From positions 12,679-76,678 of the forward strand of contig QZIX01000013.1 in NCBI GenBank assembly GCA_003599635.1: DNA of 64,000 nucleotides. The letters run 5' to 3'. The position numbers and the translations under genes were made by a program. This DNA is from Candidatus Parcubacteria bacterium (GTDB lineage: Bacteria > Patescibacteriota > Patescibacteriia > Buchananbacterales > SURF-54). The notes under the pieces are model-generated. The model did no database searches, was not told where the DNA came from, and saw only the letters and a program-made list of their open reading frames with translations. The stretch's first letter is position 1. The number at the start of each line of letters is the position of its first letter. This document shows, one piece after another, positions 6,227-43,398 of the stretch.

Positions 6227-6254
6227 ATATTCGGTTAAATTTTAATATAAACAT

Positions 6255-6295: not shown

Positions 6296-6296
6296 A

Positions 6297-6317: not shown

Positions 6318-6335
6318 AATATAATCAAAGGAAAT

Positions 6336-6713
6336 TTAAAAAAGCGCGCGTGTATCAGTTTGTGCGCGCTGGGTTTCGGATATTTTTCGGATCTGGTCTA
6401 TTTTGATTTTGAACTTATTCGAGGGTTTAACTTTACCGTTTTTTTCTTTTGGATGCCTGATGTAATAACAAATTATCTCGTCTTGATCAGATAGTGTAAA
6501 AAAACGTATTACACTGCCTTTTTTTATTATTACAGGCAAATTTTTTTTTCCGTTGAGTGTTACCAAAGTCGCTTCAATTGCGCAGGGCAATTTTAAATTG
6601 CCGTCTTCACTGCAAATAATTTCAATTCCCATGATGAGTTTAATTTCAGCTAAAGCCGAGTCCGGATGATAAAATATTATTATTAAAATCAAAAGAACCG
6701 TAGATTTTCTCAT
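6336..6713 (-). CDS. small secreted hypothetical protein
   Basis: GAGGAGG lies 8 nt upstream of ATG 6713. Signal-like MRKSTVLLILIIIFYHPDSALA. No family recognised. Confidence 0.55.
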   Translation of the reverse strand: MRKSTVLLILIIIFYHPDSALAEIKLIMGIEIICSEDGNLKLPCAIEATLVTLNGKKNLPVIIKKGSVIRFFTLSDQDEIICYYIRHPKEKNGKVKPSNKFKIKIDQIRKISETQRAQTDTRALF

Positions 6714-6801
6714 TTTAAACACCTCCTCTTTTATTCTGTTTATGATTTTCTTACCACAAAAATTATGCAATGTAAATAGAATATGGAGGAAAATTATAAA
6801 A

Positions 6802-6837
6802 CAAAAAAAAGCTCCGATAATCATTTATGCGGAGCTT
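6802..6837 (-). terminator. rho-independent terminator of the 6874-7326 gene
   Basis: Stem AAGCTCCG/CGGAGCTT (6809-6837), followed on the minus strand by T8. Confidence 0.65.
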
Positions 6838-6873
6838 GTTGATCGTGATTTTGTTTTTCGCGGGCGAAGGCAT

Positions 6874-7326
6874 TTAGGGATTGGCTTGTTCTATGTTTTG
6901 AAGGTATTTTTCTGTCATCGTGGCGAAGTCAGCTTTGCTGACAATGAATTGTGTGCCATCTGGGCACATCGTACCGTGTGTCTGAACTGGCATTTCATAT
7001 GCAACAACCAAATCTTTTCCTTGTATTTCCAGAACGGAAATTATACGGCCTTGGCAAACGACACACGAATCATAAGGAATATTTTCACCTTGGTTAATGA
7101 CATCTACCCAGCCATAATCAGGTAGTATTGCCTTTGAACCAACCTTGATTTCTTTTGCACTTTCTATAATCAAAGCAACTTGTTCATCCGAGTGATATAC
7201 TTCAAACAATTCCGATTCCCTTTCGTTGCGCTCTCGTTCTTTGCAGGTTTCGTACATAAACGTAAATACAAAAAAAATTATTAGGGGTCCCAAAACCATC
7301 CAAATGTCTTTCATCATGTCTTTCAT
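6874..7326 (-). CDS. membrane-anchored hypothetical protein (GTMCPDG motif)
   Basis: AAAGGAG RBS. One N-terminal TM helix. Shares G(T)MCP(D/S)G and overall architecture with 7544-8032. Confidence 0.6.
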   Translation of the reverse strand: MKDMMKDIWMVLGPLIIFFVFTFMYETCKERERNERESELFEVYHSDEQVALIIESAKEIKVGSKAILPDYGWVDVINQGENIPYDSCVVCQGRIISVLEIQGKDLVVAYEMPVQTHGTMCPDGTQFIVSKADFATMTEKYLQNIEQANP

Positions 7327-7396
7327 CGCTTTTGGTCTCCTTTCAATGTTTTTCCTTGCTTAAGGTGCAAAAACTATATTTTTTATACAACATAAA

Positions 7397-7425
7397 AATA
7401 TAGCATAATGTTCATTTGCTGTCAA
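7397..7425 (-). promoter_or_regulatory. sigma70-like promoter (TTGACA-17-TATATT)
   Basis: Minus strand TTGACA 7425-7420, 17 nt, TATATT 7402-7397. Part of a roughly 90-bp module duplicated at 8205-8295. Confidence 0.6.
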
Positions 7426-7543
7426 TATATTTATATATATAGTAAAAGTAGTAAAATTCTAATTCTATCCTTAACAAAAATAAAAAAAGGCGTCGATAAG
7501 ACTTACTTACGGACGCCCGGAATTTGAGATCGGCCTGAGTGGA

Positions 7544-8032
7544 TTATTTATGATATTTTTTATAGTTTGACCCTGGATATTTTTCTAAAAAGTAAAGGAT
7601 TCCAGACGGACACATCGTCCCGCCGGGGTCGTCTGAAGCGGTATACTCATATAGTCTGTTGCCGTTTACGCTACCTCTGAACTGAATAATCCCACTGACA
7701 CCGTAATCTTTACCACCGATCGGCCGCGTACCACAGGCGCATGGGTCTCCGAACTGTAATTCACATCTATTTGATGTATAGTCGCAGTCAATACAGCTAA
7801 CAGGGTTTATGTTGACAATATTGACCCAATACCAGCGGCCGGCATCTGTTGGTTCGCCGTAAAAATTCTGGGCCAGTATTTGCTTTACCAGCGTTTTTTC
7901 ATACACGGCCACATCGCCGTTGATTATATAACGCATAAGTGCCTGGATGTTTGTATGTCTGTGCAGGTATGGATATGCCAACATAAGTATTATTAGCGCA
8001 GCCATAATGATAAAGATAGCTTTTCTTGCCAT
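7544..8032 (-). CDS. membrane-anchored hypothetical protein (GGTMCPSG motif)
   Basis: AAAGGAG RBS. N-terminal TM helix. Cys-rich ectodomain. Weak paralog of 6874-7326. Confidence 0.6.
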   Translation of the reverse strand: MARKAIFIIMAALIILMLAYPYLHRHTNIQALMRYIINGDVAVYEKTLVKQILAQNFYGEPTDAGRWYWVNIVNINPVSCIDCDYTSNRCELQFGDPCACGTRPIGGKDYGVSGIIQFRGSVNGNRLYEYTASDDPGGTMCPSGILYFLEKYPGSNYKKYHK

Positions 8033-8381: not shown

Positions 8382-8455
<74 letters not shown>

Positions 8456-8506
8456 AAATGGTAAATATCTATAAATATTTCATTTTCCTATTGTATTAAC
8501 TGAGTT

Positions 8507-8535
8507 ATTTTAATATTTTGCAAATTAAATGTCAA
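8507..8535 (-). promoter_or_regulatory. promoter upstream of tRNA-Ala(GGC) (TTGACA-17-TAAAAT)
   Basis: Minus strand TTGACA 8535-8530, 17 nt, TAAAAT 8512-8507. About 50 nt upstream of the tRNA 5' end. Confidence 0.5.
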
Positions 8536-8545
8536 TTCAACCTAG

Positions 8546-8569
8546 AATTGTTTCACGTGAAACAATTTA
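8546..8569. promoter_or_regulatory. conserved palindromic motif, copy 2 (AATTGTTTCACGTGAAACAATT)
   Basis: 22-bp perfect palindrome at 8546-8567. The 21-mer 8549-8569 is identical to 6297-6317. Lies 10 nt upstream of the -35. Confidence 0.5.
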
Positions 8570-8707
8570 TAGCGTAATTAAATACTGCTATTAACATTTT
8601 TGGCTAACATCACAACTTTTTAAGTGTCCTACAATATTATGGCTAAACACGATTTTAGTCCATTTAACCCTTTTTGACTGCTTTCCAAAAACAAATCATT
8701 AAATCAA

Positions 8708-8780
8708 TGGAGATAGGGGGAATCGAACCCCCGACCTTCCGCATGCGAAGCGGACGCTCTGCCAACTGAGCTATATCCCC
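8708..8780 (-). tRNA. tRNA-Ala (anticodon CGC)
   Basis: Acceptor GGGGATA/TATCTCC with G3:U70, anticodon loop TT-CGC-AT, T-arm GGTTCGATTCC. No encoded CCA. Confidence 0.9.
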
Positions 8781-8912
8781 AAATAATGATTGTATTAAAC
8801 TGCCTCAAAGCTTAAATTGCTTTAGGTTTTGTATAACTTTATGAAATCTTAATGATTGAATTTTAACATACCAGGTAATTTCTCTTGAGGCCTGTTTTTC
8901 TGCCTTTACCTT

Positions 8913-8984
8913 CGCCCTCACGAGGAATTGAACCTCGATCTAAGGCTTAGGAGTCCTTTGTTCTATCCGTTGAACTATGAGGGC
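8913..8984 (-). tRNA. tRNA-Arg (anticodon CCU)
   Basis: Acceptor GCCCTCA/TGAGGGC, D-arm with GGATAG (A20), anticodon loop CT-CCT-AA (A31-G39 mismatch), T-arm GGTTCAATTCC. Confidence 0.8.
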
Positions 8985-9092
8985 AAAAGTAAAAGCAAAA
9001 ATGTCAGAAAAATCGATATTTTGGGCTATTCTATCAGATATCAGTAATTATCCAAAAATATGAACTTAACAGTTTTTAAACAATTTATACCC

Positions 9093-9121
9093 TTGACAAA
9101 TCACTGATTATTTTATATTAT
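9093..9121 (+). promoter_or_regulatory. sigma70-like promoter (TTGACA-17-TATTAT)
   Basis: TTGACA 9093-9098, TATTAT 9116-9121. ATG 9127 lies 6 nt after the -10, so the transcript may be leaderless. Confidence 0.55.
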
Positions 9122-9126
9122 ATAAT

Positions 9127-10098
9127 ATGATTTTACAATACCCTACATATTTAAGGATAAAAACCAGCCGGTTATTGGCCGAGTTTTTTAAGAATTTTAA
9201 TAAAAAAGGGATGATTCCAGTCAGACAAAAATATGATGCTTCCAAGATAAAATTACCCAGAAAGATTCTTGAAAAGATTAACCAGATTAAAAGCGGAAAC
9301 GGAAAGATTGTTAAGGAAGACAAGATTTATATGGCTGGAGCCGAACCTTTTTTTATCTATGCCTCGACTAAAATCGGGGTTTTATTGTTGCACGGATTTA
9401 CCTCAACACCGGCGCAGTTTTTGGAATTAGGGGATTATCTTGCCGGTAAAGGAATAACGGTTTACGCACCGTTGATAGCCGGCCATGGCACCAGCCCGGA
9501 TGATTTGTCGCAAAGCAGGGCGGAAGAATGGCTTGAATCCTGCCAAAAAGCTTTTGACGAACTGAAAAATAAAGTTGATAAAGTTTTTGTTTTGGGAAAT
9601 TCTTTTGGCGGCAATATTGCTTTTGAACTGTCATTAAAAAATCCGGAAAAAGTTTCCGGCGTGATTTCAATCGGCACGCCGGTATGGGTTAGAAAACATC
9701 ATTTTTTAAAACTGCAGGCTTTTTCTTACGGTTTTTTAAAAAAATACTGGAGAAAGCCGAAAAGATACTATCGTTCGGGTTTTGCGCATATCATTGACGA
9801 AATTACTTATTCAAAGGTTCCGGTCCGCGCTTGCCGGGAATTTTTCAAATTTATTTACAAAAGTTTCAGGTCATTTGATAAGGTTACGGCGCCGACTTTG
9901 ATTATTCAGGCGGAAATAGATCCGGTGGTAAACCCCAAAAGCGCTTTGCATATTCATGAATGCATCAGTTCGCAAAACAAAAAAATATGCTGGATTGACG
10001 GTTCCACATCGCATGCGCTTTCCGACGACAAAGACAGGGGACGGGTGTATAAAAAAATCTACAATTTTGTTCAGGAAGTGGCTAAAAATGAAAATTAG
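9127..10098 (+). CDS. alpha/beta hydrolase (carboxylesterase / monoacylglycerol-lipase-like)
   Basis: VLLLHGFTSTP and the nucleophile elbow GNSFGG. Overall resemblance to Est/YvaK-type esterases. Start uncertain: 9127 if leaderless, or 9331 (MAGAEPFF), which matches where homologs start. Confidence 0.8.
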   Translation: MILQYPTYLRIKTSRLLAEFFKNFNKKGMIPVRQKYDASKIKLPRKILEKINQIKSGNGKIVKEDKIYMAGAEPFFIYASTKIGVLLLHGFTSTPAQFLELGDYLAGKGITVYAPLIAGHGTSPDDLSQSRAEEWLESCQKAFDELKNKVDKVFVLGNSFGGNIAFELSLKNPEKVSGVISIGTPVWVRKHHFLKLQAFSYGFLKKYWRKPKRYYRSGFAHIIDEITYSKVPVRACREFFKFIYKSFRSFDKVTAPTLIIQAEIDPVVNPKSALHIHECISSQNKKICWIDGSTSHALSDDKDRGRVYKKIYNFVQEVAKNEN

Positions 10099-30162: not shown

Positions 30163-31230
30163 ATGTCCGAAAGAAGAGTAGATTATAACTCTGCAGTCAG
30201 TAACATGTCAAGTCATGAGCAAGGCAAACAGATGAATTTTGCTGAATTAAACTGTTTTGATTATTTTAAAACACATCCTGAACTTCAACATTTGCCGGCT
30301 ATAGAATTTAATGATGCCCTATATCTTAAGCCCAGTGAGGCGCGTAATGATGAAATTCTGGCGAGAAGAAAGGAAAATATGGTTGATTGCTCAGAGGAGC
30401 CGAAAAGAAGTGAACTTTTGGAAATGATGTATGTAGTATTGGCTGATAAGGCCAAATGGTTTGGCGAAGATGTTTCTGCCAGAAGGACAAGCTGGTATGA
30501 TGATTATATTAACGGTGCAGATCTGTATTTTGAATGTGGTGGTCATATATTGGCAGTTGATGTGATAGTCGATGCCGATGCCGAGGCAACGAGAGAAAAA
30601 ACCAGAAGGATAAAAGCGGAAATTAATTCCGGAGAATTTTCAGAATTAAAATATGTAATTTTTCAGGATGGTACAAAACATTGCGTAAAAAATGTACCAA
30701 GAATAATAATCAGAAAAAAGAGGGAGTGGGTTAAAGAAAAAGCGGAAATAATGGGCAGAAATCTGATGATGATTCCGGGCAGTAATGAGGAATTAGTTAC
30801 GGATCCTGATAGGAAAGCAGACAGGGAAAATGCCCAAAATCAACTGGCATCACAGGCAATCAAAGCGTTATCAATATTTTTTGAAACAAATTTGAATTCA
30901 GAAAATACAAAATCTGAAATCCAGCGAAATTTAAAAAGCAATCTTGGAGCTAAATTGAACGGTTTTTTCAAAGACAAAGGAGAATCTTCGGTTTATAAGA
31001 TTTGTGAAAGTTTTCTCCGTAATCCCAAAATGGTAAATCTTAAAAAATATAGTGAAACAAAAAATATTATAGAAGCACTTTTGTTTTGGCTCAAAAAATA
31101 TGAAATAACGTTTGAAAAAGAAAGCTCTCCCGGAAATAACAGGAGAGCCAGCAGAAAGAGTATATTTTCTGATCCGTCTACGGTAAGCCTTTTGGCGGAT
31201 GCCGCGAATCAGATGGGTTTCCACTTTTAG
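30163..31230 (+). CDS. hypothetical protein (355 aa, no recognisable domain)
   Basis: Long ORF with coding-like composition, preceded by a 160-nt AT-rich spacer. No motif recognised. Confidence 0.6.
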   Translation: MSERRVDYNSAVSNMSSHEQGKQMNFAELNCFDYFKTHPELQHLPAIEFNDALYLKPSEARNDEILARRKENMVDCSEEPKRSELLEMMYVVLADKAKWFGEDVSARRTSWYDDYINGADLYFECGGHILAVDVIVDADAEATREKTRRIKAEINSGEFSELKYVIFQDGTKHCVKNVPRIIIRKKREWVKEKAEIMGRNLMMIPGSNEELVTDPDRKADRENAQNQLASQAIKALSIFFETNLNSENTKSEIQRNLKSNLGAKLNGFFKDKGESSVYKICESFLRNPKMVNLKKYSETKNIIEALLFWLKKYEITFEKESSPGNNRRASRKSIFSDPSTVSLLADAANQMGFHF

Positions 31231-31523: not shown

Positions 31524-33254
31524 TTACAACAACCCGGAAATATCTTTTGCCACCCTGAAAACTTCTTCAACCGAAGTTATGCCGTCTATCGCTTTAAGCA
31601 ACCCGTCCTGAACCATTGTAACCATTCCGTTTTTCAGGGCGATTCTTTTTAAATCGTATTCGGAAACCTGGCCCGACAGAATCAGCGGTTCATATTCCGG
31701 CACCATCGACATAACTTCAAAAATTCCTATGCGTCCTTTGTAACCGATACCCTGGCAGGCGGTGCAGCCCCTGCCTTTGTAAAATTTAATTTTGTGCAAT
31801 TCCTTCGGTTTACTGCCGGAATTGTCGGGAATTTTAGACAGAATACTTAACGCTTCTGACAATATTTTATTGTCGAGCTCGGTTTCAACTTTGCATTTGG
31901 CGCAGATGCGACGCACCAGCCGCTGCCCGATGATGGCGTTTAAAGCCGGCGGCAGAAGGAAATTCTTTACTCCCATGGCAATCAGCCGCGGTATGGCGCC
32001 CGAAGAGTCATTGGTATGCAGGGTAGTGGCGACAAGGTGTCCGGTCAGCGCGGCATTAATTGAAATATCGGCGGTTTCCAGATCCCTGACTTCACCGACC
32101 ATAATAATGTCCGGATCCTGCCGCAGCAGCGACCTTAGTCCGGAGGCAAAAGTATAATTTTTTGCCGGATCGACCTGGCTTTGGGAAATTCCCGGGATGC
32201 GGTATTCGACCGGATCTTCCAGGGTAAGTATTTTATTTCCCGGGGTGCTGAGTTTTAGCAAAATGGCGTAAAGCATGGTGGTTTTGCCGGAACCTGTGGG
32301 GCCGGTGGCGATTATCATGCCGTTGGGTTTTTTAATTTCTTCTTCCAGGTCCACAAAGGCCTTGCCACGGAGGCCCAAATCTTCAAAAGCCATGCCCTGC
32401 TTGGATGACATTAAAATTCTCATTACCACGCTTTCGCCGTAAGCCGTGGGCACAGTCGAAACGCGGACATCAATCTGTTCATCGGTCATAAATATGGTAA
32501 AGCGCCCGTCTTGCGGCCGGTCAGTGACGTTGATTTTCAGCCGTGATGTCAGTTTTATTCTGGCGATTATTTTTGTCCAGACGCTTTTTTCTATAGTGGC
32601 GGCGTTATGAAGGAAGCCGTCAATTCGATACCTGACTTTGATTTCCCTTGATTCCGCTTCAATATGGATGTCAGAGGCTTTGACTTTAAGTCCGCCCGCG
32701 ATAATTAACGACAGCATATCCGTCAGGTTGGCCGAGCTTAAGGCGCGGCTTAAATCCTTGAAAGTTTTCAGTTCTTTTTCAAATCTTTCGATTTCTTCTT
32801 TTTTTATTTCCACTCCGGTTATGACTTCTTTATATTTGGGCAGGACCGAATACAACCGGAAAGCCGTGTTGAAACTGTGCTCTGAAATTTTAAAAACCGT
32901 AACCGGTTTGGAGGTTTTTTTAAAAATTTCATTTTTAAGATTTTCCACCGATTCATCGGCAGGGTTTACCGAGCCGAGTTTGATGCCGTTGTCGTCGCGG
33001 AAAAAACAGACGGTTTTCAGTCTGGCCGCTGTTGGTTCCGCAATGGTTATTAAAGTTTCCGGACTGATGGGAAAAGCGTAAAGACTGATATACGGCGTGC
33101 CGAGCAAAGCGGCTTCGTTTCTGGCTTCCTGTTCTTTATCTTTAATCATTATGTCGGAAATCTTCTTTCTGAATTTTTCCTGCACTTCCCGGGTAGCAAG
33201 TTTAGGCAGCCGGGAGCGGTTAATTTTTTGTTTATCTGCTTTCATAATGTTCAC
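31524..33254 (-). CDS. pilB: type IV pilus / type II secretion ATPase (PilB/GspE family)
   Basis: Walker A GPTGSGKTT, Asp box, Walker B DPDIIMVGE, tetracysteine CAKC...CTAC, N-terminal T2SSE_N-like domain. GTG 33254 or ATG 33245 as start. Confidence 0.9.
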   Translation of the reverse strand: MNIMKADKQKINRSRLPKLATREVQEKFRKKISDIMIKDKEQEARNEAALLGTPYISLYAFPISPETLITIAEPTAARLKTVCFFRDDNGIKLGSVNPADESVENLKNEIFKKTSKPVTVFKISEHSFNTAFRLYSVLPKYKEVITGVEIKKEEIERFEKELKTFKDLSRALSSANLTDMLSLIIAGGLKVKASDIHIEAESREIKVRYRIDGFLHNAATIEKSVWTKIIARIKLTSRLKINVTDRPQDGRFTIFMTDEQIDVRVSTVPTAYGESVVMRILMSSKQGMAFEDLGLRGKAFVDLEEEIKKPNGMIIATGPTGSGKTTMLYAILLKLSTPGNKILTLEDPVEYRIPGISQSQVDPAKNYTFASGLRSLLRQDPDIIMVGEVRDLETADISINAALTGHLVATTLHTNDSSGAIPRLIAMGVKNFLLPPALNAIIGQRLVRRICAKCKVETELDNKILSEALSILSKIPDNSGSKPKELHKIKFYKGRGCTACQGIGYKGRIGIFEVMSMVPEYEPLILSGQVSEYDLKRIALKNGMVTMVQDGLLKAIDGITSVEEVFRVAKDISGLL

Positions 33255-33585: not shown

Positions 33586-33622
33586 TAAGGCCATGGAATT
33601 ATTTCTATGGCCTTATTTTTTT
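33586..33622. terminator. hairpin terminator overlapping the amidohydrolase stop codon
   Basis: Stem TAAGGCCAT/ATGGCCTTA plus T7 on the plus strand. Confidence 0.65.
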
Positions 33623-34323
33623 AACTTAAAAACCCTTATGGCGTTTCTGAAATAAATGTCATCCTTTAGACTGTCAGCAACCGGCAGTGTTTTAATTAAA
33701 TTTATATGCGCGGCCATATCTGTCATTGGCCAGTCGCTGCCAAAAATAAGGCTGTGCCTATCCCTGGAAATAGTTTTTATCAGTATCTTTTTAATTTTTC
33801 TCAAACCTTTACTCATTTTTAAAACTTCTTCATCCGCTAAACAGGAAGTATCAAAAAAAATGTTCTTGTATCCCTTTGTTATCTTAAAACAATAATCAAG
33901 TTTCGGCCAAAAATAATGCGCGATTATAATTTTTAAATTTTTAAAACTATTAGCTACATTTACTATATGTGCAGGATCATTATACTTTGCGCATTTTTTA
34001 TCCCCTGTATTTATCCCAGTATGGATAATTAAAGGCAGGTTGAATTCTTGGCATAAAGAAAAGATCGGTTGCCATCTTTTATCGGTGGGGTAAATCGGGT
34101 CGTGGCCAGGAAAAATTTTAAAACCATGAGCTTTCTTACTTGCGAATAATTTTCTTATCACCCCTAAGTTATTAGTATTTACTTGTTCCGCCCTTAAAGT
34201 GGCTATGGCTAAAAGTTTTGGCTCTTTTTTAGTCAGTTCAAGTATTGTATCTAATCCTGCACATTGAGGATTTGGTACATTGTCAGGGATGGCAATTGCT
34301 TTGGTGACTTTGTTTTTTTTCAT
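33613..34323 (-). CDS. amidohydrolase-2 (TIM-barrel metal-dependent hydrolase) family protein
   Basis: LPLIIHTG, IIIAHYFWP and LIFGSDWPM are typical of the family. Confidence 0.7.
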   Translation of the reverse strand: MKKNKVTKAIAIPDNVPNPQCAGLDTILELTKKEPKLLAIATLRAEQVNTNNLGVIRKLFASKKAHGFKIFPGHDPIYPTDKRWQPIFSLCQEFNLPLIIHTGINTGDKKCAKYNDPAHIVNVANSFKNLKIIIAHYFWPKLDYCFKITKGYKNIFFDTSCLADEEVLKMSKGLRKIKKILIKTISRDRHSLIFGSDWPMTDMAAHINLIKTLPVADSLKDDIYFRNAIRVFKLKK

Positions 34324-34638: not shown

Positions 34639-35289
34639 ATGTTGTTGATTAAAATCGCCACTGGTTTAACTTTTATTTTCAGCTTGTCTTTGGGGGTTTT
34701 TACTTTGGTAAGAAATCCCAGGTCCAAGATCAATCTGACCTGGTTTTTGGCCTGTATGGCCGTCGCATTATGGAGCGGAGCTTACTTTATTCTAAAATTT
34801 ATTACTGACGAAGAAACCGCAAAAATTTTTTTATACCCTCTTTATATCGGAACTATTTTGATGCCGATATTTTTTTTCCATTTTTCTGTCAAATTTTTAT
34901 TAAAGAATAGCATAACTTTATACTTTGGATACTTAATAGCGCTGATTTTGGTTATTCTTTTTTCTTTAACTAAAGTAATTGTTGATGGCGTGGAGTATAT
35001 AGACTTTTATGGTTTCCACGGCAATATCCAGCCGGCTGTATATGTAATGTATTTGTATTATTTTTCTTTTTTCATTTATGCTTTTATTTTGTTATACCAG
35101 GAATATAAAAGAAATAACGGAATAAAATCAGAACAGGCAAAATACATGTTACTTGCATTGGTGATAGGCGTTGGCGGCGGAGCGACAAATTTTATAACAG
35201 ATGTCTTCGGTTCTCTGCCATACGGGCAGATATTGGTCCCCCTGTATCCGATTTTTATCACTTACGGAATTTTTATTAAGAAGTATTAA
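34639..35289 (+). CDS. stand-alone 7TM protein paralogous to a histidine-kinase sensor domain (copy 1)
   Basis: 216 aa, all membrane. Collinear with 36802-37458 and with the first ~215 aa of the kinase at 38987. Confidence 0.7.
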   Translation: MLLIKIATGLTFIFSLSLGVFTLVRNPRSKINLTWFLACMAVALWSGAYFILKFITDEETAKIFLYPLYIGTILMPIFFFHFSVKFLLKNSITLYFGYLIALILVILFSLTKVIVDGVEYIDFYGFHGNIQPAVYVMYLYYFSFFIYAFILLYQEYKRNNGIKSEQAKYMLLALVIGVGGGATNFITDVFGSLPYGQILVPLYPIFITYGIFIKKY

Positions 35290-35308
35290 AATCAATTTTT
35301 TAGTTTAT

Positions 35309-35334
35309 TGTCATCCTGAACTTGATTCAGGATC
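35309..35334 (+). repeat. hairpin repeat TGTCATCCTGAACTTGATTCAGGATC
   Basis: 8-bp stem ATCCTGAA/TTCAGGAT. Family member; see 35773-36080. Confidence 0.7.
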
Positions 35335-35344
35335 TAGAAAAAAT

Positions 35345-35373
35345 TTGACATAATAATCGCTCTGGAATAAAAT
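35345..35373 (+). promoter_or_regulatory. sigma70-like promoter (TTGACA-17-TAAAAT) upstream of the GIY-YIG gene
   Basis: TTGACA 35345-35350, TAAAAT 35368-35373. The leader contains a TACCCT...AGGGTA hairpin at 35392-35414. Confidence 0.5.
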
Positions 35374-35452
35374 AAGGTTAACAATTTAAGCTACCCTTCG
35401 ACAAGCTCAGGGTAAATCAACACGGCAAATTTTTGCGGTGTTTTTTTGCGTT

Positions 35453-35761
35453 ATGAAATTATATTACGTTTACATCATGTCAAATAAGTACAACAACGTT
35501 CTTTATATCGGCGTGACAAATGATATTTATAGAAGAGTGTTAGAGCACAAGGAAAAATTAATTAAAGGATTTACAGAAAAGTATAATATAGATAAGCTGG
35601 TTTATTATGAAGGGTTCAACAGTATTTATGATGCTTTAAATAGGGAAAAGCAGCTGAAAAATTGGCATAGGCAATGGAAAATGAATTTAATAGCATCAAT
35701 AAATCCAGAATGGAAAGATTTAAGTGATTATCTACAATACTGCCATTTTGAATTTTTTTGA
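35453..35761 (+). CDS. GIY-YIG nuclease family protein (UPF0213-like)
   Basis: YVYIMSNKYNNVLYIGVTNDIYRRVLEHK...REKQLKNW is the classic GIY-YIG core. Confidence 0.85.
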   Translation: MKLYYVYIMSNKYNNVLYIGVTNDIYRRVLEHKEKLIKGFTEKYNIDKLVYYEGFNSIYDALNREKQLKNWHRQWKMNLIASINPEWKDLSDYLQYCHFEFF

Positions 35762-35772
35762 AATCCCCATCA

Positions 35773-36080
35773 TGTCACCCTGAAATTAAGTCTTGTCACC
35801 CTGAACCTTGTGCTGAACTTGTTTCAGTATCGTTTCAGGGTCTTTTTTATTCCTTGGAGATTCCGAAACAAGTTCGGAATGACAATTAGGAAAAACCCAC
35901 CGTCATCCTGAAAGCCATTATGTCACCCTGGATTTATTTCAGGATCTCCCACGGCAAAAACACGCCTCTTTAAAGAGGCGTATTTATTTGTTATAATTTA
36001 TTTATTATTTCATAACTACAGATTCCGAAATGAATTCGGAATGACAATTACAGTTGTCATCCTAAACTTGTTTCAGGATC
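35773..36080. repeat. cluster of hairpin repeats (TGTCAyCCTGAA..TTCAGGrTC and TGTCATTCCGAA..TTCGGAATC variants)
   Basis: Solo half 35773-35784. Nested copy 35794-35842 with an inner hairpin at 35811-35829. Reverse copies 35859-35884 and 36021-36046. Nested copy 35902-35946. Forward copy 36055-36080. Confidence 0.75.
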
Positions 36081-36093
36081 TAAATGCATATCT

Positions 36094-36702
36094 ATGCTAA
36101 AAGTGGACGCGGAGTTTTGGAGGAAATACACCAAAGTTTACGACACATTAAATAATGTAATTTCGTACCAGGAATTGCTTGCCGATGTCTGCAATGAGTT
36201 GCAAATAAAATCCGGCGATAAAATTTTGGAAGCAGGCTGCGGCACCGGGAATTTGGCAATTAAAATGAAAGGCCTAGGCGCCGAAGTAATTGGGTTGGAC
36301 AGTTGTAAAGAAGCGCTGGATGTTTACAAACAAAAAGACAAAGACGCCAAGGCTGTTTTATGGGATTTGTCTAAAACTCCCCTGCCGTTTCCGGATAATT
36401 ATTTTAACAAGATTACCTGCGTTAATGTTTTATACGCCATTGCGGTTGAAAAAAGGGAGAGTATAGTAAAAGAATTTTATCGTATTTTAAAACCTGAAGG
36501 AAAAGTTGTACTAGTAAACGTTGAAAAAAATGGTAGTGTTTGTAAAATTTATTTTCATCATTTAAATCTACTCTTTAGAGAAAAAGGTGCAATAAATATG
36601 GTGGCTAATTTGTTAAAGTTTTTACCTAATGCATTAAGATTATTATATTATAACCTTTTTATTGTAGTAGATAGAATTTTTTTTTTCGTAATGAACAGTT
36701 GA
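36094..36702 (+). CDS. class I SAM-dependent methyltransferase, apparently frameshifted at a T10 run
   Basis: Motif I ILEAGCGTGNLA. Paralog of 37481-38233. The homologous C-terminus continues in another frame to 36788. Confidence 0.7.
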   Translation: MLKVDAEFWRKYTKVYDTLNNVISYQELLADVCNELQIKSGDKILEAGCGTGNLAIKMKGLGAEVIGLDSCKEALDVYKQKDKDAKAVLWDLSKTPLPFPDNYFNKITCVNVLYAIAVEKRESIVKEFYRILKPEGKVVLVNVEKNGSVCKIYFHHLNLLFREKGAINMVANLLKFLPNALRLLYYNLFIVVDRIFFFVMNS

Positions 36703-36801
36703 AGATTTTAGAAAATTACTTTAAAAAAGTATCATCTACAAGCTTAGTTTATGCAAAACAGTGTATTTTAAATTCAGCAGTTAAATGATATAATTTACTA
36801 T

Positions 36802-37458
36802 ATGTGGAATCCATTAATTATTTTTACTACTGCGTTGACATTTATTCTTTCTCTAGCTCTTGGTATATATACCTTATCTATCAATCCACGTGAAAAGATA
36901 AATAAATTATGGTTTCTTAGTAATTTAGCAGTAGCATTATGGACATTTTCTTATATACTTTTATTCCTAACTACTGATGATAAAACCGCTGCTTTCTTAC
37001 AAAACTTTCTCTACACTGGCGCTATATTAATTCCCATTTTTTTATTTCATTTTGTTGTACTTTTTACTTACCAAAAGGGACGATTTATATTACTTTTTGG
37101 ATACCTTTACTCATCTATTTTAATAATCCTGCTTTATACGACAGATTTACTTCTTAAAGGTACTTTCGTAAATAGAGATTTTTTTGATGAAATTAGAGGG
37201 CCATTGTTTCCGTTTTACCTGTTATATTTTTTTCTCTTCATAATTTTATCTGTTATTTTTTTAATAAAGAAGTACTTGAAAGCAGACGGCATTTATAAAA
37301 AGCAAATATTATACATTCTTATCGCTATTTTAATAAGTGCCATTGGTGGATCAACAAATTACATAACAGAAATTTATGATATTTACCCTTATGGGCAAAC
37401 ATTTGTTTTCCTATATCCAATAATAATTACATATGCTTTGTTTTTGAAGAAGTATTAG
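36802..37458 (+). CDS. stand-alone 7TM protein paralogous to a histidine-kinase sensor domain (copy 2)
   Basis: 218 aa. TGATATAAT extended -10 at 36786-36794, 8 nt before the ATG. Collinear with copy 1. Confidence 0.7.
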   Translation: MWNPLIIFTTALTFILSLALGIYTLSINPREKINKLWFLSNLAVALWTFSYILLFLTTDDKTAAFLQNFLYTGAILIPIFLFHFVVLFTYQKGRFILLFGYLYSSILIILLYTTDLLLKGTFVNRDFFDEIRGPLFPFYLLYFFLFIILSVIFLIKKYLKADGIYKKQILYILIAILISAIGGSTNYITEIYDIYPYGQTFVFLYPIIITYALFLKKY

Positions 37459-37480
37459 TAAATGCATAATATTAAATGTA

Positions 37481-38233
37481 ATGACTAATGTAAACTTCTA
37501 TAATAAGATTGATAAGGTTTTTTGGCATATTTATATGTTGGCTTATCCTAAGGTTGTACGTAAATTATTACCAAGGCAACTGTTGTTTAAGGTTATACTA
37601 GATAAACTTGAAGTAAAAGATGGCTATAGATACTTAGACGCAGGATGTGGCTTCGGAGAATTATGCACATTGATCCAAAAGAAGGGCGGTATTGCGGTTG
37701 GTATAGATAGATCAAAGAAAGTATTAGAAGGGGCAACAAAATTAAACCCAGATGTTAAATTTAAAGTTGTGGATCTAAATAAAGAACAAGAGCTGGACTT
37801 TAACTCAACATTTAATGGAATAGTATCTGTGAACACTCTTTACTTGATTGATACATTTAAAGAGGTAAATGGTCGAAAAATACCTATCACTTTATTTTAT
37901 TTCAACGATTGGTTAAAAAAAGGTGGCAGATTAGTAATTGTAATACCACTAGCTAATTATAGTCAGTTAAGAAAATTTGTTGATCACTTTAAATTATCTG
38001 TTAAAAAATCAGGTTATATTTTGACCTTCTTGCAAATGGTTATTTATTTCCCCCTTATCTTAATTGTTGTATTGATGAATATTTACGTAAAGTTTAAAGG
38101 GAGTAAAGGCCATTATTTTTTTTATACTCCCGATGATTTTGAGTTAATGATAAAATCAGTTGGTTTTAAAATAATAAGTAATACACTTTGTTACAGTGAT
38201 CAAAACGTTATGATTGTTGCAGAAAAACTATGA
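37481..38233 (+). CDS. class I SAM-dependent methyltransferase with a C-proximal hydrophobic helix
   Basis: Motif I YLDAGCGFGELC, LKKGGRLVIV. TM-like YILTFLQMVIYFPLILIVVLMNIYV. Confidence 0.75.
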   Translation: MTNVNFYNKIDKVFWHIYMLAYPKVVRKLLPRQLLFKVILDKLEVKDGYRYLDAGCGFGELCTLIQKKGGIAVGIDRSKKVLEGATKLNPDVKFKVVDLNKEQELDFNSTFNGIVSVNTLYLIDTFKEVNGRKIPITLFYFNDWLKKGGRLVIVIPLANYSQLRKFVDHFKLSVKKSGYILTFLQMVIYFPLILIVVLMNIYVKFKGSKGHYFFYTPDDFELMIKSVGFKIISNTLCYSDQNVMIVAEKL

Positions 38234-39000
38234 AGCTTAGCAAAACTACATTTGAATTGATTAAAGAACCCAAAAAGAATTTGAAAAATAAGGAGGTATT
38301 AGCCAAGGAAATAACTGATTTAATAATGCTTTCTTGGGGAAATTATGATATCGAAAAAATTAAAAATGTTTTTTTAAATTTAGAAGAGGTTGTCTTAGGC
38401 TATGTAGGTGATGAATTATGTTTTATCACAGGTGGAGGTATTGATAAAATTAAATATGATAGGCAATCAATATATCTATATAGAATTGGATTGACTGTTG
38501 TTAAAAAAATGACATTAGATGGTGAAAGTTTATGGAAGAAAGGCATAATGAGTAAAGGTTTGTTCATTTTGTTAAAACATCTTTTTCTAAAACATCCGTT
38601 TAGAAATTTTTATGTAGGGATTAGAACTTTGGATCCGGTTGTCTTTAAATTTGCGAGTAAATATTTAAATGCAGTGGTACCAAATTATAAGAAGAACACT
38701 ATACCAACAGAGAAAGAAAAACTAATTGCTAAATATATATCTGGCAAGATTAACCCTGGGTGTCTGTTCGATGAGAATAGATTTGTGGTACATAATGCTT
38801 TTAGTAATCATATAGACCTTGCTATAAATAAAATAAGCGAATTACCGAATTTTAAGGACGAGGAGATAAAAAAATTTTTCCTCGAAAATATTGATTATAA
38901 AAAGGGAGATGCTTTTATAATAATTGGTAAAATCAATGTTATTGTGTTACTGAAGTTTAAAATAAAAAATATTTTTAAAGTATTTTATGGTGGTAAATGA
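38230..39000 (+). CDS. hypothetical protein (256 aa; possibly acyltransferase-like)
   Basis: ATGA overlap with the methyltransferase gene and 14-nt overlap with the kinase gene. No firm motif. The GNAT-like idea is speculation. Confidence 0.55.
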   Translation: MKLSKTTFELIKEPKKNLKNKEVLAKEITDLIMLSWGNYDIEKIKNVFLNLEEVVLGYVGDELCFITGGGIDKIKYDRQSIYLYRIGLTVVKKMTLDGESLWKKGIMSKGLFILLKHLFLKHPFRNFYVGIRTLDPVVFKFASKYLNAVVPNYKKNTIPTEKEKLIAKYISGKINPGCLFDENRFVVHNAFSNHIDLAINKISELPNFKDEEIKKFFLENIDYKKGDAFIIIGKINVIVLLKFKIKNIFKVFYGGK

Positions 39001-41311
39001 TTTACTAATTATAGCCATTATTATTATTAATATAATCTTAGGAATTTTTATATTATTCAATAATAGAAAGAAAAGGGCAAATATTTTTTTTGGTGCAATT
39101 GTTTTTTGTTTTGCAATATGGTCATTTAGTTTCTACATGAGAAATAAGGTTTCTACTCCAGATGATATATTTTTTTGGGTAAAGATATCCAATGGTATTA
39201 TGAGTTTTATACCTATATTGTTCTTTTATTTCAGTTTAACTTTTTCCCATACAAAAATAACTTTAAATAAAATTATAAAATTTTTATTGATTTTATTACC
39301 TTTATTTTTTGTCATAACTGGTATTTTTAATCTTGTGGCTAAAGGCGTTGAAGAAAATAGCGGTCAATTTAGAGCAATACCGGGAAAAATATTTATCACA
39401 TTTTCACTATATTTCGTTTTCTTTTGCATACTCAGTTTTTATAATTTAGTTAGTTCTTACAGAAAATCTGAAGGGATATATAAGTTACAAATAAAATATT
39501 TTTTTGTAGGATCTTTTTTTACTACTTTAATTACGATAGTTGCTAATCTTATTCTACCTGGTTTGGGCATACCAAATTTAAGTAAACTAGGACCTTCTTC
39601 AACTGTAATTATTGTATTATTTACGGCTTATGCTATTACACGTTATCGCTTAATGGATATAAGGTTGGTAGTTGTCCGTTCAATTGCTTTTGCAACATTA
39701 ATCTTATTAATAACAGGTGTGTATGCCGGGCTTTCGATAATAATCGGTTCTATGTTGGAACGGTTTATCGGAACATCATCTCAAATCGTTGTTGGTTTGG
39801 TAGTTGCCTTACTTATTGCCATCGGCTACAGCCCCATCAAACGCGGGATTGAAAACATTACCAATAAATTTCTTTTTAAAAAAACCTACAACCCGGACGA
39901 CTTAATATCGCAGGTAAACGACATTTCAACATCAATCCTGGACCTGAACAACATGCTGGCTTCAATATCCAAAGCATTGACCGATGCTTTGCACGCCGGC
40001 AAGATTTCCTTTGCCCTGCTTAACAAAAAAGGCCGGCTGGAACTGTCATACGAGCGGGGTTTTGGCAAAAAGATTTATGATTTTACCAGAGGAAAGGAAG
40101 CCATCCTGCCGATATATTTTAAGGATTCCAAACAGATTTATGTCATAGAAGAACTGAAAACCGCCTACGAACAGGGAGAATACACGCCGAAAAATATCAA
40201 ATTAATGTACGCTCTTTACGAAATGGATATCGCGCTTGTGGTGCCTCTTTTCACCAAAGAAAAATTAATCGGTCTGATTGTTCTGGGCAATAAAAAATCC
40301 GGCGACCTTTATAACAAGCAGGATCTGCACGTGCTTGACATTATTTCCGGCCAGGCGGCAGTCGGTATTGAAAACGCCATTCTGTACGAGGAGCAAAGGC
40401 AGTTTGGCATCAGGTTGGAAAAAACGGTTGCTGAAAGAACCTCGCAGTTACGGGTTGCCAATGTCAAATTAAAGGAACTGGATTCAGCCAAGTCAGAATT
40501 TATTTCCATCGCCTCGCACCAGCTGCGCACGCCTTTAACCGTAATCAAGGGGTATATTTCCATGATTTTGGAAGGGTCTTTCGGCAAAACTTCCAAAGTG
40601 GTCAAAGATTGCCTGAACAAGGTTTATCTTTCCAACGAGAGGCTTATCGGCCTGGTTGAAGATTTGCTTAACATTTCCAGAATCGAATCCGGAAAGCAGG
40701 AATACAATTTCCAGCCGCTTGATCTGGTTTTCGCCTGTCAGTCAGTTTATGAAGAACTGCAGCAGAAAGCAGCAATGAAAAAAATCAAACTGGATTTTGA
40801 AAAACCCAAAGTCAAAATTGCGCAGGTCGTGGCAGATGCCGACAAGCTTCATGAAGTGATGATGAATTTTACGGACAATGCCATAAAATATACGCCGTCG
40901 GGTTTTGTAAAAATCAAAATTGAACAAAAAGATGATAATATTATTTTTTCTGTCCGCGATTCGGGCATCGGTATGAGCAAAGAGGATATGAGTCATTTGT
41001 TTCAGAAATTTTCCCGCGCCAAGGGTTCTTCCCTTGTCCATACCGAAGGAACCGGTCTCGGCCTTTATGTCGCCAAGATGATAGTGGAATCACACATGGG
41101 CGGGATTTGGGCAAAATCTGAAGGCCGCGGCAAGGGCTCGGTATTTTATTTTTCCATCCCTGTTTTGGGCAAAGGCAGAAGTATCGGCATACTGACCCAG
41201 GAAAGGATAAAGTCGCTTGACGTTAGAGGGGAACAACCCAAAGACAACCCGTTAATTATCAGGACGCCTGAAAAAAGCGTTGATCCGATAAAGGCACAGA
41301 GAAGTATTTGA
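38987..41311 (+). CDS. sensor histidine kinase: 7TM sensor + GAF-like + HisKA + HATPase_c
   Basis: H-box SEFISIASHQLRTPLT, N-box NFTDNAIKYT, G1 DSGIGM, G2 GTGLGL. No response regulator in the window. Confidence 0.85.
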   Translation: MVVNDLLIIAIIIINIILGIFILFNNRKKRANIFFGAIVFCFAIWSFSFYMRNKVSTPDDIFFWVKISNGIMSFIPILFFYFSLTFSHTKITLNKIIKFLLILLPLFFVITGIFNLVAKGVEENSGQFRAIPGKIFITFSLYFVFFCILSFYNLVSSYRKSEGIYKLQIKYFFVGSFFTTLITIVANLILPGLGIPNLSKLGPSSTVIIVLFTAYAITRYRLMDIRLVVVRSIAFATLILLITGVYAGLSIIIGSMLERFIGTSSQIVVGLVVALLIAIGYSPIKRGIENITNKFLFKKTYNPDDLISQVNDISTSILDLNNMLASISKALTDALHAGKISFALLNKKGRLELSYERGFGKKIYDFTRGKEAILPIYFKDSKQIYVIEELKTAYEQGEYTPKNIKLMYALYEMDIALVVPLFTKEKLIGLIVLGNKKSGDLYNKQDLHVLDIISGQAAVGIENAILYEEQRQFGIRLEKTVAERTSQLRVANVKLKELDSAKSEFISIASHQLRTPLTVIKGYISMILEGSFGKTSKVVKDCLNKVYLSNERLIGLVEDLLNISRIESGKQEYNFQPLDLVFACQSVYEELQQKAAMKKIKLDFEKPKVKIAQVVADADKLHEVMMNFTDNAIKYTPSGFVKIKIEQKDDNIIFSVRDSGIGMSKEDMSHLFQKFSRAKGSSLVHTEGTGLGLYVAKMIVESHMGGIWAKSEGRGKGSVFYFSIPVLGKGRSIGILTQERIKSLDVRGEQPKDNPLIIRTPEKSVDPIKAQRSI

Positions 41312-41376: not shown

Positions 41377-42954
41377 ATGAAAAATATGTTGAAAAAATTA
41401 TCTGCGGCTGCGGTAATTTTTGTTTTTTTGTCCAATTTTTTCCCCAAAGCGTCCCTGGGGGCAATAAATTTAGTAAAAAGCAGGGAAAGCCAGACGGTTT
41501 ACTATCTGGACGGGCTGGGCTTCAGGCATCCTTTTCCCAATTTTATAACCTACAAGTCATGGTACGGCGATGATTTTTCTAAGATAACGACCGTGTCAAA
41601 AGAATTTCTTGCTACTTTTCCTTTAGCGAAAAATATCACTATTCGTTCCGGCAAATACCTGGTTAAAGTCCAGTCCGATCCCAAAGTTTATGCCGTTGAA
41701 CCGGGCGGACTGCTGCGTCATATCCAAAATGACGAAATAGCCCGGGCACTTTACGGCAGCAGCTGGGAAAAAAAGGTGGTCGATCTGCCCGAAATTTTTT
41801 TTGACAATTATAAAATCGGTTCGCCGATAAAGCATACCTGGGATATACCCGAAGGCGTTGTTTACAAAATTCAGGGAGAATCCAAATATTACTGGAAAGA
41901 AAACGACACCATCAGGCCGTTTGGCTCTGAGCAGGCGATAATTGACAACGGTTACAGTCTTATTGACGTCGTCTCGGCGAGCAATACTTACTATTCAACC
42001 AAAAAACCGGTAACCGGAATCAGCAAAACAGTTTTTGATCCGTTAAAAGAAGCGTATTCTGACGAACGCGACTGCGAAAATAAAAATTTAAAAATCGCTT
42101 TCATTTTTTTAAACAAAGGCAGCTATACATCGGAACAGATTGAAAAAATGGAAGCAATAAAATCCAATCTTTCGTCATATTATTCCTGGGCGACTGACGG
42201 ACTTTCGCATCTTGACGTCAGTTACCCAATTTTCACCCTGGCTGATGACGGGTACTATATTAATGTGAATAATGAAGGCAAGACTATTTTGGTCAAAGAT
42301 GAAATCCTCCGTTCTTTTTATGAACAGTATGAAGATGTTTTCGATTTTGTCGCGATTTTTACCAATTTTGATTTTTTTAAAAAGGAAATCGCGGATTTTT
42401 TACCGGTTTCTAATATTGTTGAAGGCATTGGCAAACCGATTCTGGACACGTCGCAATTTTACGGCAGTTTCGGGAAATTGAAGGGAATAATCAATATGGA
42501 AAATATCGACAAATACGATACTTCGCCGGCATCAAAATTAAATGAGGTGCAAAATGTGCTGGTGCACGAAATATTGCATAACTGGAGCGGGGCTGTCAGG
42601 TTTAAAAACACGGAGGGTAAAATCGATCTGTCTTTGTTGCGGCTGCCTGACAAGGCGCACTGGAGTTATTACGACAGTTTCGTTTCACCGCTTGGCGGAT
42701 CCGGCTGGGCTGACAACGGCGACGGCACATTCACATCGGCAGTTTCTCTTATGGCCGATACTTCAAAAAAGAAATTTTCCGATCTTGACTTGTATTTAAT
42801 GGGCCTGATACCGTCAAGGGAAATTGAGCCGATAAAATACATTGTGCCAAAAATCGCGGATGCTTTGGGTAATACCCTTGAAGCGTCTGAACACGTGGTT
42901 ACCATAAATCAAATAATAGAGGCGGAAGGTTCCTGGCAATGCGGTAATAATTAG
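41377..42954 (+). CDS. secreted protein with HExxH zinc-peptidase motif
   Basis: Signal peptide MKNMLKKLSAAAVIFVFLSNFFPKASLGA. VLVHEILHNW. Family not recognised. Confidence 0.6.
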   Translation: MKNMLKKLSAAAVIFVFLSNFFPKASLGAINLVKSRESQTVYYLDGLGFRHPFPNFITYKSWYGDDFSKITTVSKEFLATFPLAKNITIRSGKYLVKVQSDPKVYAVEPGGLLRHIQNDEIARALYGSSWEKKVVDLPEIFFDNYKIGSPIKHTWDIPEGVVYKIQGESKYYWKENDTIRPFGSEQAIIDNGYSLIDVVSASNTYYSTKKPVTGISKTVFDPLKEAYSDERDCENKNLKIAFIFLNKGSYTSEQIEKMEAIKSNLSSYYSWATDGLSHLDVSYPIFTLADDGYYINVNNEGKTILVKDEILRSFYEQYEDVFDFVAIFTNFDFFKKEIADFLPVSNIVEGIGKPILDTSQFYGSFGKLKGIINMENIDKYDTSPASKLNEVQNVLVHEILHNWSGAVRFKNTEGKIDLSLLRLPDKAHWSYYDSFVSPLGGSGWADNGDGTFTSAVSLMADTSKKKFSDLDLYLMGLIPSREIEPIKYIVPKIADALGNTLEASEHVVTINQIIEAEGSWQCGNN

Positions 42955-43092: not shown

Positions 43093-43398
43093 ATGGAAAA
43101 ACAAACTAAAATCAGTTTTATTGCCATGGGGGGAAGCATACTGTTTTTGCTGATTCATCTTTTAATAATTTCTTTCATTGTCATCCCTCCATTTTTTATG
43201 ATTTTGTCTTTGATCTTTATTATCTGCTTTGTGATTTCCATGATTTACAACGCTTACACTTTTATCAATTACAGAAAACCCGAAGATTTCTGGAAACTGG
43301 GGTGGCTGGGCGTTATCGGTTCTTTGGGTATAATCGCCAATTACAGTCTTTTCGGATTATTCGGGCTTTTCGGATTATTCGGGCTTAAAAAAAAGTAG
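43093..43398 (+). CDS. small membrane protein
   Basis: Three TM helices. C-terminal GLFGLFGLFGL is encoded by an 18-bp tandem duplication. Confidence 0.55.
   Translation: MEKQTKISFIAMGGSILFLLIHLLIISFIVIPPFFMILSLIFIICFVISMIYNAYTFINYRKPEDFWKLGWLGVIGSLGIIANYSLFGLFGLFGLFGLKKK

Follow-up and report, generated by a model that had tools for sequence, protein, structure and literature searches.

The window analysed here comprises 64,000 nucleotides (nt) of a Candidatus Parcubacteria genome (contig QZIX01000013.1 of assembly GCA_003599635.1) and carries a gene for a 774-residue histidine kinase (38987-41311; NCBI protein C4569_03055). This kinase consists, in order, of a HisKA_7TM domain (the seven-transmembrane, or 7TM, sensor), two transmembrane (TM) helices, and GAF, HisKA and HATPase_c domains. 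An AT-rich block precedes its catalytic part. The block begins within a methyltransferase gene, referred to as MTase-A, spans three complete genes, and ends within the kinase gene shortly after the 7TM domain.

An AT-rich block with borders inside two genes

The features of the block and of its two border genes are as follows (GC, G+C content; GC3, GC at third codon positions; SAM, S-adenosylmethionine; ORF, open reading frame).

36094..36788 (ORF as called to 36702), plus strand: MTase-A, class I SAM methyltransferase (Pfam Methyltransf_11/25), left border gene
36439..36472, best 36460: left composition change point (GC3 step)
36460..39718, plus strand: compositionally foreign block, 3259 nt, 27.0% GC
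36802..37458, plus strand: 7TM-B, stand-alone HisKA_7TM protein, 218 aa, in block (PF16927, 78 bits)
37481..38233, plus strand: MTase-B, class I SAM methyltransferase, 250 aa, in block (Pfam Methyltransf_23/31)
38230..39000, plus strand: predicted GNAT-fold acyltransferase, 256 aa, in block (remote homology and predicted fold)
38987..39718, plus strand: 7TM sensor module of the kinase, codons 1-244 (PF16927, 65.9 bits, residues 8-225)
39629..39667, plus strand: conserved motif YAITRYRLMDIRL closing the 7TM domain (kinase residues 215-227; 30-sequence alignment)
39719..41311, plus strand: resident kinase core, with two further TM helices, GAF (~300-465), HisKA (501-569) and HATPase_c (617-726) (Pfam)

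The GC content of the block compares with 39.8% in the rest of the window. Segments of the same size elsewhere average 39.9% (standard deviation, sd, 1.8%; minimum 34.3%), placing the block about 7 sd lower. A preliminary description of this DNA, made from the letters alone, had reported the AT-rich segment from hand counts on individual 60-nt lines. The computed values reproduce those counts both inside the block (21.7% at 36541, 25.0% at 37021, 26.7% at 38401 and 28.3% at 39601) and beyond it (40.0% at 36361 and 43.3% at both 39721 and 40021).

GC3 per gene is 0.23-0.26 for the three genes lying entirely within the block and 0.40-0.46 for typical genes, and a sliding GC3 profile places both steps inside the two border genes. 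To obtain an expected GC3, a codon table from window genes outside the locus was applied to the amino acids of each segment. Comparing the two halves of each border gene, a check that the preliminary description had proposed, reveals a sharp contrast within both: GC3 is 0.459 in codons 1-115 of MTase-A (z +0.8) and 0.129 in codons 116-202 (z -5.1), while in the kinase it is 0.162 in codons 1-240 (z -7.8) and 0.491 in codons 241-774 (z +3.9). Maximum likelihood places the left change point at 36460 on GC3 (support codons 115-126, nt 36439-36472) and at 36462 on all bases. Here, at codon ~122 of MTase-A, GC3 drops from 0.475 to 0.125 (twice the log-likelihood difference, 2*dlnL, = 29). The right change point falls at 39719 on GC3, at codon ~244 of the kinase (support codons 237-277), and at 39714 on all bases (support 39620-39727). 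The computed steps thus lie near the 36.45 and 39.71 kb first estimated by hand, and the left transition, described then as falling in mid-methyltransferase, is a step at synonymous sites.

Codon and amino-acid bias of membrane proteins is one conceivable source of low GC, as two of the block's five segments code for 7TM domains. Expected GC3 is 0.37-0.42 in all segments, membrane domains included; for the block segments, expected values of 0.37-0.41 stand against observed values of 0.13-0.24 (z -5 to -7.8). The soluble methyltransferase and the GNAT are depleted as strongly as the membrane proteins (z -6.1 for 7TM-B, -5.5 for MTase-B and -5.2 for the 256-aa gene), and membrane-rich genes elsewhere in the window lack any depletion (z -1.3 for 34639-35289, +0.6 for 43093-43398 and +0.3 for 1043-1450). 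Given an expected GC3 of ~0.40 everywhere, TM-helix codon bias, an alternative that the preliminary description had itself raised, is ruled out by this amino-acid-corrected test and retains next to no probability. Uneven protein conservation along MTase-A is likewise not the cause of the left step, because GC3 does not drop from the N- to the C-terminal part of its orthologues at the relatives' loci L005, L006 and L030 (in L024 it falls only from 0.19 to 0.08), and because the conserved SAM-binding N-half of MTase-B, inside the block, itself has a low GC3.

Relatives' loci, designated here by L numbers, were gathered by protein look-ups and by a scan of species-representative genomes. For all five block segments, codon-usage likelihoods favour low-GC relatives (background genes of L001 and L058) over the window's own usage, with dlnL of 19 for the C-terminal part of MTase-A, 27 for 7TM-B, 32 for MTase-B, 37 for the GNAT and 46 for the kinase sensor, or ~160 in sum. 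The kinase core, a downstream gene for a 525-aa protein and an upstream stand-alone 7TM gene (7TM-A) are best fitted by the window itself. The block carries the codon usage of a relative of ~30-33% GC.

The protein encoded across the right border is a HisKA_7TM-type kinase, scoring 65.9 bits to PF16927 (cut-off 28.6), 61.3 bits to HisKA and 97.2 bits to HATPase_c. In an alignment of 30 sequences, neither H511 nor the N, D and G boxes vary, and the columns of YAITRYRLMDIRL are invariant or nearly so. The right junction lies ~20 codons past this motif, which closes the 7TM domain, and stand-alone 7TM proteins terminate at the homologous position. The right step at ~39.71 kb therefore does follow the 7TM domain, as originally proposed, but it is not the boundary between membrane and cytoplasm, since two further TM helices follow it.

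Sensors and cores across the kinase family

The two parts of this kinase have different closest relatives. Its closest core relatives, P0002-P0005 (loci L001-L004), possess cores that are 69-75% identical to that of the window, whereas their sensors are only 29-39% identical; DNA homology to these loci begins at 39482-39629 and continues to the end of the kinase gene. The best match to the window's sensor is found in L085/L091 (44%, 187 bits) and exceeds that of any core orthologue (30-39%), yet the core of L085/L091 is only 40% identical. Separate phylogenies of the 7TM and catalytic parts, computed as simple neighbour-joining (NJ) trees from 208 and 248 columns with 300 bootstrap replicates, are incongruent. 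The sensor tree groups the window with L085 in 93% of replicates and with L001-4 in 0%, whereas the core tree groups it with L001-4 in 100% and with L085 in 0%.

The genes upstream agree with the sensor. The L085-L091 loci possess, in this order, a methyltransferase 41-42% identical to MTase-B, a GNAT (46%), and a 535-aa kinase without a GAF domain. Genes of the L085/L091 module are under purifying selection (dN/dS 0.09-0.18; 0.18 for the GNAT homologues). A search for further cassettes with a gene of the 256-aa type returned only the L085-L091 clade and no donor.

The same discordance extends across the family. In the closest subfamily, the kinase lies downstream of one to four stand-alone HisKA_7TM genes and a varying set of enzymes. 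Among 69 kinases, sensor identity and core identity are weakly correlated (r=0.25), and, with core identity controlled for, sensors resemble each other more closely in kinase pairs that have an upstream gene family in common (permutation p ~0.0005). The sensor clades L007+L011+L012 and L005+L024 (100% each) share upstream genes and break up in the core tree. Over 68 loci with such kinases in Patescibacteria, the phylogeny of the sensor is decoupled from the kinase core and goes with the enzyme cassette upstream.

Several pairs of relatives show where the exchange occurs. P0002 and P0004 are 25-35% identical up to residues 200-240 and 87-100% identical beyond them. DNA homology between L002 and L003 (81%) starts at kinase codon 213/214, at the motif YAITRYRLMDI. 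Two Falkowbacteria metagenome-assembled genomes (MAGs; L052, kinase at 4931-6643, and L054, at 5836-7545) encode cores that are ~100% identical from residue ~282 and sensors that are 25-75% identical, and both have a GC3 of ~0.25 in the sensor and ~0.6 in the core. Breakpoints thus recur at the same motif in independent pairs, and the window is one instance of a family-wide process.

Cassette enzymes and neighbouring genes

The 256-aa gene immediately upstream of the kinase overlaps its neighbours on both sides. The preliminary description had correctly placed it inside the block as an unknown gene, and Pfam and NCBIfam return no match for the protein itself. A profile search retrieves 91 distant relatives; of 56 that were scanned, 24 hit the Acetyltransf_1 model. 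An AlphaFold2 model from a 56-sequence alignment reaches a predicted local distance difference test (pLDDT) score of 93.8, replacing an earlier model from three sequences (pLDDT 51.8), and its top 50 Foldseek matches in the PDB are all GNATs (probability 1.00, TM-scores 0.41/0.56). By predicted fold and remote homology, the protein is a divergent GNAT-fold acyltransferase. A closer relationship to LuxI/FeeM proteins was considered and rejected: hhalign against the corresponding proteins of L005, L006 and L024 gives a probability of 0.1%, and no Autoind_synth, FeeM or Acetyltransf_5 match is found.

MTase-A, which shares 28% identity with MTase-B, is orthologous to the methyltransferases adjoining the kinase in L005, L006 and L024. 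Its frame is broken in a T10 run at 36677-36686; the called ORF stops at 36702, and the +2 frame runs on to 36788. The frameshift-corrected protein has 231 aa and aligns over 99% of its length with homologues of 231-237 aa, the tail FFFRNEQLKILENYFKK...AVK included. The T10 run could be the mark of a post-swap pseudogene, slipped-strand variation or a sequencing error.

The cassettes of relatives offer a broader view of what is carried next to these sensors. Directly upstream of the kinase, L005, L006 and L024 encode an MTase-A orthologue together with a LuxI/FeeM/OlsB-like GNAT above Pfam thresholds (Autoind_synth 44, 41 and 24.4 bits, respectively; cut-off 24). In the same position, L082 encodes a pyridoxal phosphate (PLP) enzyme of the BioF/Kbl/serine-palmitoyltransferase/CqsA family (8762-9955), and L058 an AGPAT-like acyltransferase with an HAD-IB hydrolase, or HAD phosphatase (8713-9961). 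Other cassettes contain a LuxD-like domain (L001), a CMAS-type methyltransferase (L006), a pyruvoyl decarboxylase (HDC) and an MMPL transporter (L002), radical-SAM, Shikimate_DH-family and NAD-synthase-like enzymes (L004), or a ThiF enzyme (L030). NCBIfam scores of the relatives' enzymes fall below curated cut-offs. The window's own cassette is composed of a methyltransferase and a GNAT, the latter occupying the position directly upstream of the kinase. Judged from these predicted families, the common theme of the cassettes is lipid or acyl-amino-acid chemistry adjoining a membrane-embedded sensor.

Three further features flank the block.

34639..35289, plus strand: 7TM-A, stand-alone HisKA_7TM protein, 216 aa (PF16927, 49.4 bits; cut-off 28.6)
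35438-35761: GIY-YIG gene, 107 aa, between 7TM-A and MTase-A, with palindromic repeats on either side
41377..42954, plus strand: downstream 525-aa protein, with a hydrophobic N-terminal leader and an HExxH (HEILH) motif

7TM-A lies outside the AT-rich block as a resident part of the locus and is 46% identical to 7TM-B, whose GC3 is 0.215. The 7TM gene first described within the block is indeed present as 7TM-B, although as a stand-alone paralogue and not as a fragment of a kinase. We also considered whether stand-alone 7TM genes represent displaced kinase sensors, a 'sensor graveyard', and rejected the idea: they form a paralogue group of their own and are the best match of 0 of 69 kinase sensors. 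A promoter-like site lies upstream of 7TM-B at 36767-36794; the scan that found it yields 57 such sites as compared with 41.0 in shuffled sequences (sd 7.3), ~2 sd above, and a scan for terminators yields a count at chance level.

Palindromic repeats surround the GIY-YIG gene (35308-36082), with the forms GTCAYCCTGAA...TTCAGGATC and GATTCCGAA...TTCGGAATGACAA; two of the longer motifs that were tested are found nowhere else within the window. GIY-YIG homologues also adjoin 7TM arrays in L001 and L005, and they occur at three of 10 array loci and at two of 75 other loci (Fisher p=0.011). It is conceivable that this putative nuclease promotes local recombination.

The downstream 525-aa gene is of native composition (GC3 z +1.6), and Pfam and NCBIfam scans of its product return no match. 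Homologues are encoded close to the kinase in five relatives (L001 19189-20892, L005 6401-7981, L006 18619-20211, L008 11418-13106 and L012 12204-13790), and from this association the protein may be a functional partner or regulated target of the kinase. A 101-aa, very hydrophobic ORF follows at 43093-43398, ending in a repeated GLFGLFGLFGL; it has native composition and a weak match to the WGxxGxxG family (E=0.003).

The wider surroundings of the locus are housekeeping genes (tsaD, tsaE, a T2SSE/PilB-type ATPase, argS, ileS and ruvA). Among them, the ATPase gene (31524-33254, minus strand; GC3 0.51, z +4.6) is an outlier in the direction opposite to the block. Two further compositional outliers lie close to the locus, a 355-aa ORF without a family match (30163-31230; GC3 z -5.0) and an Amidohydro_2 gene (33613-34323, minus strand; GC3 z -3.8). 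Together with a stretch of intermediate composition at 34.6-36.0 kb, they suggest that further or older imports surround the kinase. A cluster of three tRNA genes (8382-8984, minus strand) provides the sole Rfam matches in the window.

No integrase or transposase is found by Pfam among the genes of the window, the block contains no Rfam element, and a search of the block for phage and plasmid similarity returns no match. Its borders lack flanking direct or inverted repeats beyond short AT-rich ones expected by chance. The tRNAs are 28 kb distant from the block, and the hallmarks of a mobile island, transposon or prophage are missing. The lack of flanking repeats, integrase, and phage or plasmid matches fits homologous replacement and not the insertion of a mobile element.

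Origin of the block and comparison with known systems

Intragenic synonymous steps, low-GC codon usage, incongruent trees, and a junction reused in independent pairs all support the replacement of a cassette that the preliminary description had suggested. The segment from the 3' part of MTase-A through the 7TM sensor of the kinase is probably a foreign cassette recombined in frame into resident genes. The block would have replaced its resident counterpart by homologous recombination in a double crossover, with the left crossover inside the MTase-A gene near codon 122 and the right one in or just after the YAITRYRLMDIRL-coding stretch near codon 244, the motif being the likely homology anchor. 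The donor would have possessed the gene order MTase-A-like, 7TM-B, MTase-B, GNAT and kinase, and the earlier resident layout may have resembled that of L005/L006, namely 7TM, MTase-A, LuxI/FeeM-like GNAT and kinase. The outcome would be a resident kinase core bearing a foreign sensor along with the enzymes that travel with that sensor. Unless the T10 frameshift is a sequencing error, it may later have inactivated the hybrid MTase-A.

Several observations weigh against such an import. No donor is identified, and even the best homologues of the block genes share only 41-46% protein identity. Across 55 loci, sensor GC3 is 0.095 below genome background (p=1.5e-8), GC3 of the upstream 3 kb is 0.06 below it, and core GC3 is 0.04 above it (p=1e-4); with sensors and upstream genes AT-rich throughout the family, the locus may owe some of its contrast to a lasting trait and not to a single recent import. 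Protein comparisons add no support on the left side. The N/C identity contrast in MTase-A (22.8) equals the family background (22.2), the homologues being too distant, and the mosaic methyltransferase originally described is supported by its intragenic composition step. The simple construction of the NJ trees is a further caveat. Finally, the contig belongs to a MAG, and its sequence is on record in one assembly only.

This last point raises the alternative of an assembly chimera, in which a 3.3-kb path from a co-occurring low-GC relative was threaded between resident stretches. No exact copies of the kinase or MTase-A are on record in other assemblies, and a 41-mer taken on the block's side of the junction has no exact match in a metagenome contig collection; both borders fall in genes with homologues in relatives, where k-mers could be shared, and the T10 frameshift could itself be an assembly or sequencing error. 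Such a chimera, however, requires two joins, each of which must keep the reading frame and lead back to the same genome. At the right junction, known relatives have only ~70% DNA identity, so that long exact k-mers are not expected there, and a strain similar enough to mislead an assembler would be an ideal recombination partner as well. Moreover, the same discordance at the domain junction occurs in independent assemblies from other samples (L002/L003, L052/L054 and P0002/P0004), indicating that such joins do arise in nature, and we consider a chimera very unlikely. The family-wide composition could instead mean that no recent import took place and that the block is an old, divergent allele class kept in this lineage, its AT-richness being a lasting local feature due, for example, to AT-biased mutation in sequence too diverged to recombine freely or to biased gene conversion. 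On this view, its sharp edges would be the points from which sequence is again conserved enough to recombine with that of relatives. The low GC3 of sensors and higher GC3 of cores across the 55 loci, the AT-rich upstream regions of L006 and L007, and the 0.25-to-0.6 step in L052 and L054 all agree with an allele of this kind. Yet the sensor deficit of the window (-0.25) ranks third among the 55 loci, the left edge lies midway through a methyltransferase gene and has no counterpart in the orthologues, while the equally conserved N-half of MTase-B is AT-rich, and the codon usage of the block specifically matches low-GC relatives. The strong incongruence between sensor and core trees requires an exchange at some time. 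An old allele, which we regard as unlikely, therefore differs from the import of a foreign cassette mainly in the timing and source of that exchange.

What a swapped cassette would do for the cell is a more tentative matter. Possibly, though we would not call it probable, the product of each cassette is a small molecule, lipid-like or acylated, that the 7TM sensor transferred with it recognises in the membrane, as the predicted enzyme families suggest. Swapping cassette and sensor as a unit would keep producer and receptor matched while changing the 'pherotype'. Against this function stand the lack of a receiver domain in any frame of the window and in the closest loci (more distant relatives encode one directly downstream of the kinase), the absence of detectable LuxI/FeeM similarity in the window's GNAT, and the fact that co-variation of sensor and enzymes is also expected from physical linkage alone. 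A role in envelope-lipid modification and sensing is equally compatible with the cassette. More doubtful still is a widespread pherotype-like system of Patescibacteria, in which matched units of biosynthetic cassette and HisKA_7TM sensor would move between lineages. Under such a system, cassettes with LuxI/FeeM-like, CqsA/SPT-like (serine palmitoyltransferase), GNAT, methyltransferase, CFA-synthase (cyclopropane fatty acid) and decarboxylase enzymes may be grafted onto conserved kinase cores at the YAITRYRLMDI hotspot, and arrays of stand-alone 7TM paralogues would serve as extra receptors or decoys.

Surface-structure loci provide one precedent for the composition of the locus. Low-GC O-antigen and capsule loci are AT-rich cassettes of variable gene content, replaced by homologous recombination in conserved flanks. 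The cassette region described here is likewise AT-rich across its family. Unlike those loci, it is flanked by gene halves, one of them ending at a domain boundary of a signalling protein, measures only ~3 kb, and contains no glycosyltransferases.

Loci that couple an autoinducer synthase to a kinase offer a second comparison. The CqsS sensor has six TM helices and is not a HisKA_7TM domain. In the relatives, L082 encodes a BioF/Kbl/CqsA-family enzyme, and L005, L006 and L024 encode LuxI/FeeM-like GNATs, directly upstream of the kinase; the window's own GNAT matches neither the LuxI nor the FeeM models. In the alpha-hydroxyketone systems CqsA/CqsS and LqsA/LqsS, as outlined in the cited reports, the synthase of a lipid-like autoinducer lies beside a multi-TM kinase that senses a hydrophobic ligand (PMC3285556, PMC3376566).

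The pattern also resembles that of the pherotype loci agrBDC and comQXP. In Staphylococcus aureus, the variable agrBDC region shows internal linkage disequilibrium and none with agrA or the flanks (PMC8768832). As in agrBDC, the variable block described here extends from inside an upstream gene to the sensor half of a kinase, the other kinase half is conserved and follows the genome, and the sensor goes with the upstream genes, not with the core. Unlike agrBDC, the locus contains no peptide precursor or AgrB-type peptidase, the linked genes being methyltransferases and acyltransferases; no adjacent response regulator is found, and the sensor is a HisKA_7TM domain. Exchange here also bridges lineages that are far apart, with 41-46% protein identity and widely differing GC content. 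In Bacillus subtilis comQXP (PMC6334282), a modifying enzyme and the membrane sensor half of a kinase vary together, as they do here. ComX, however, is a prenylated peptide for which no comparable precursor gene is identified at this locus, and Bacillus possesses an adjacent response regulator, ComA, and varies within a species. Of the features of a pherotype locus, the variable block joined to a conserved kinase half is present, as seen in composition, trees and recurrent breakpoints; a signal precursor peptide with its processing enzyme is not found, and no peptide-type gene is identified in the short intergenic spaces.

Among the titles and abstracts returned by literature searches on HisKA_7TM, autoinducer synthases of Patescibacteria, and quorum sensing or histidine kinases of the candidate phyla radiation (CPR), none describes such a locus. 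Here the setting is CPR/Patescibacteria, with an orphan-ligand 7TM sensor, lipid-type enzymes in place of peptides, and dozens of lineages sharing one junction. These loci chart, in natural sequences, the point at which kinases of this family accept a grafted domain, and they supply candidate genes for synthesis of the ligand of PF16927, an orphan sensor domain. They also lead to a testable hypothesis on chemical signalling, or the sensing of envelope lipids, among organisms of which hardly any have been cultured. If true, the pherotype-like interpretation would open a first genomic way into the chemical signals that CPR bacteria exchange with other cells or, as symbionts, with hosts. Exchange of sensors on a conserved core, with linked enzymes, is the genetic signature of diversifying producer-receptor pairs in agr and comQXP. 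The present locus is best filed as a putative variant of this known pattern of hypervariable producer/sensor cassettes, one from CPR bacteria that joins small-molecule enzymes to a HisKA_7TM sensor.

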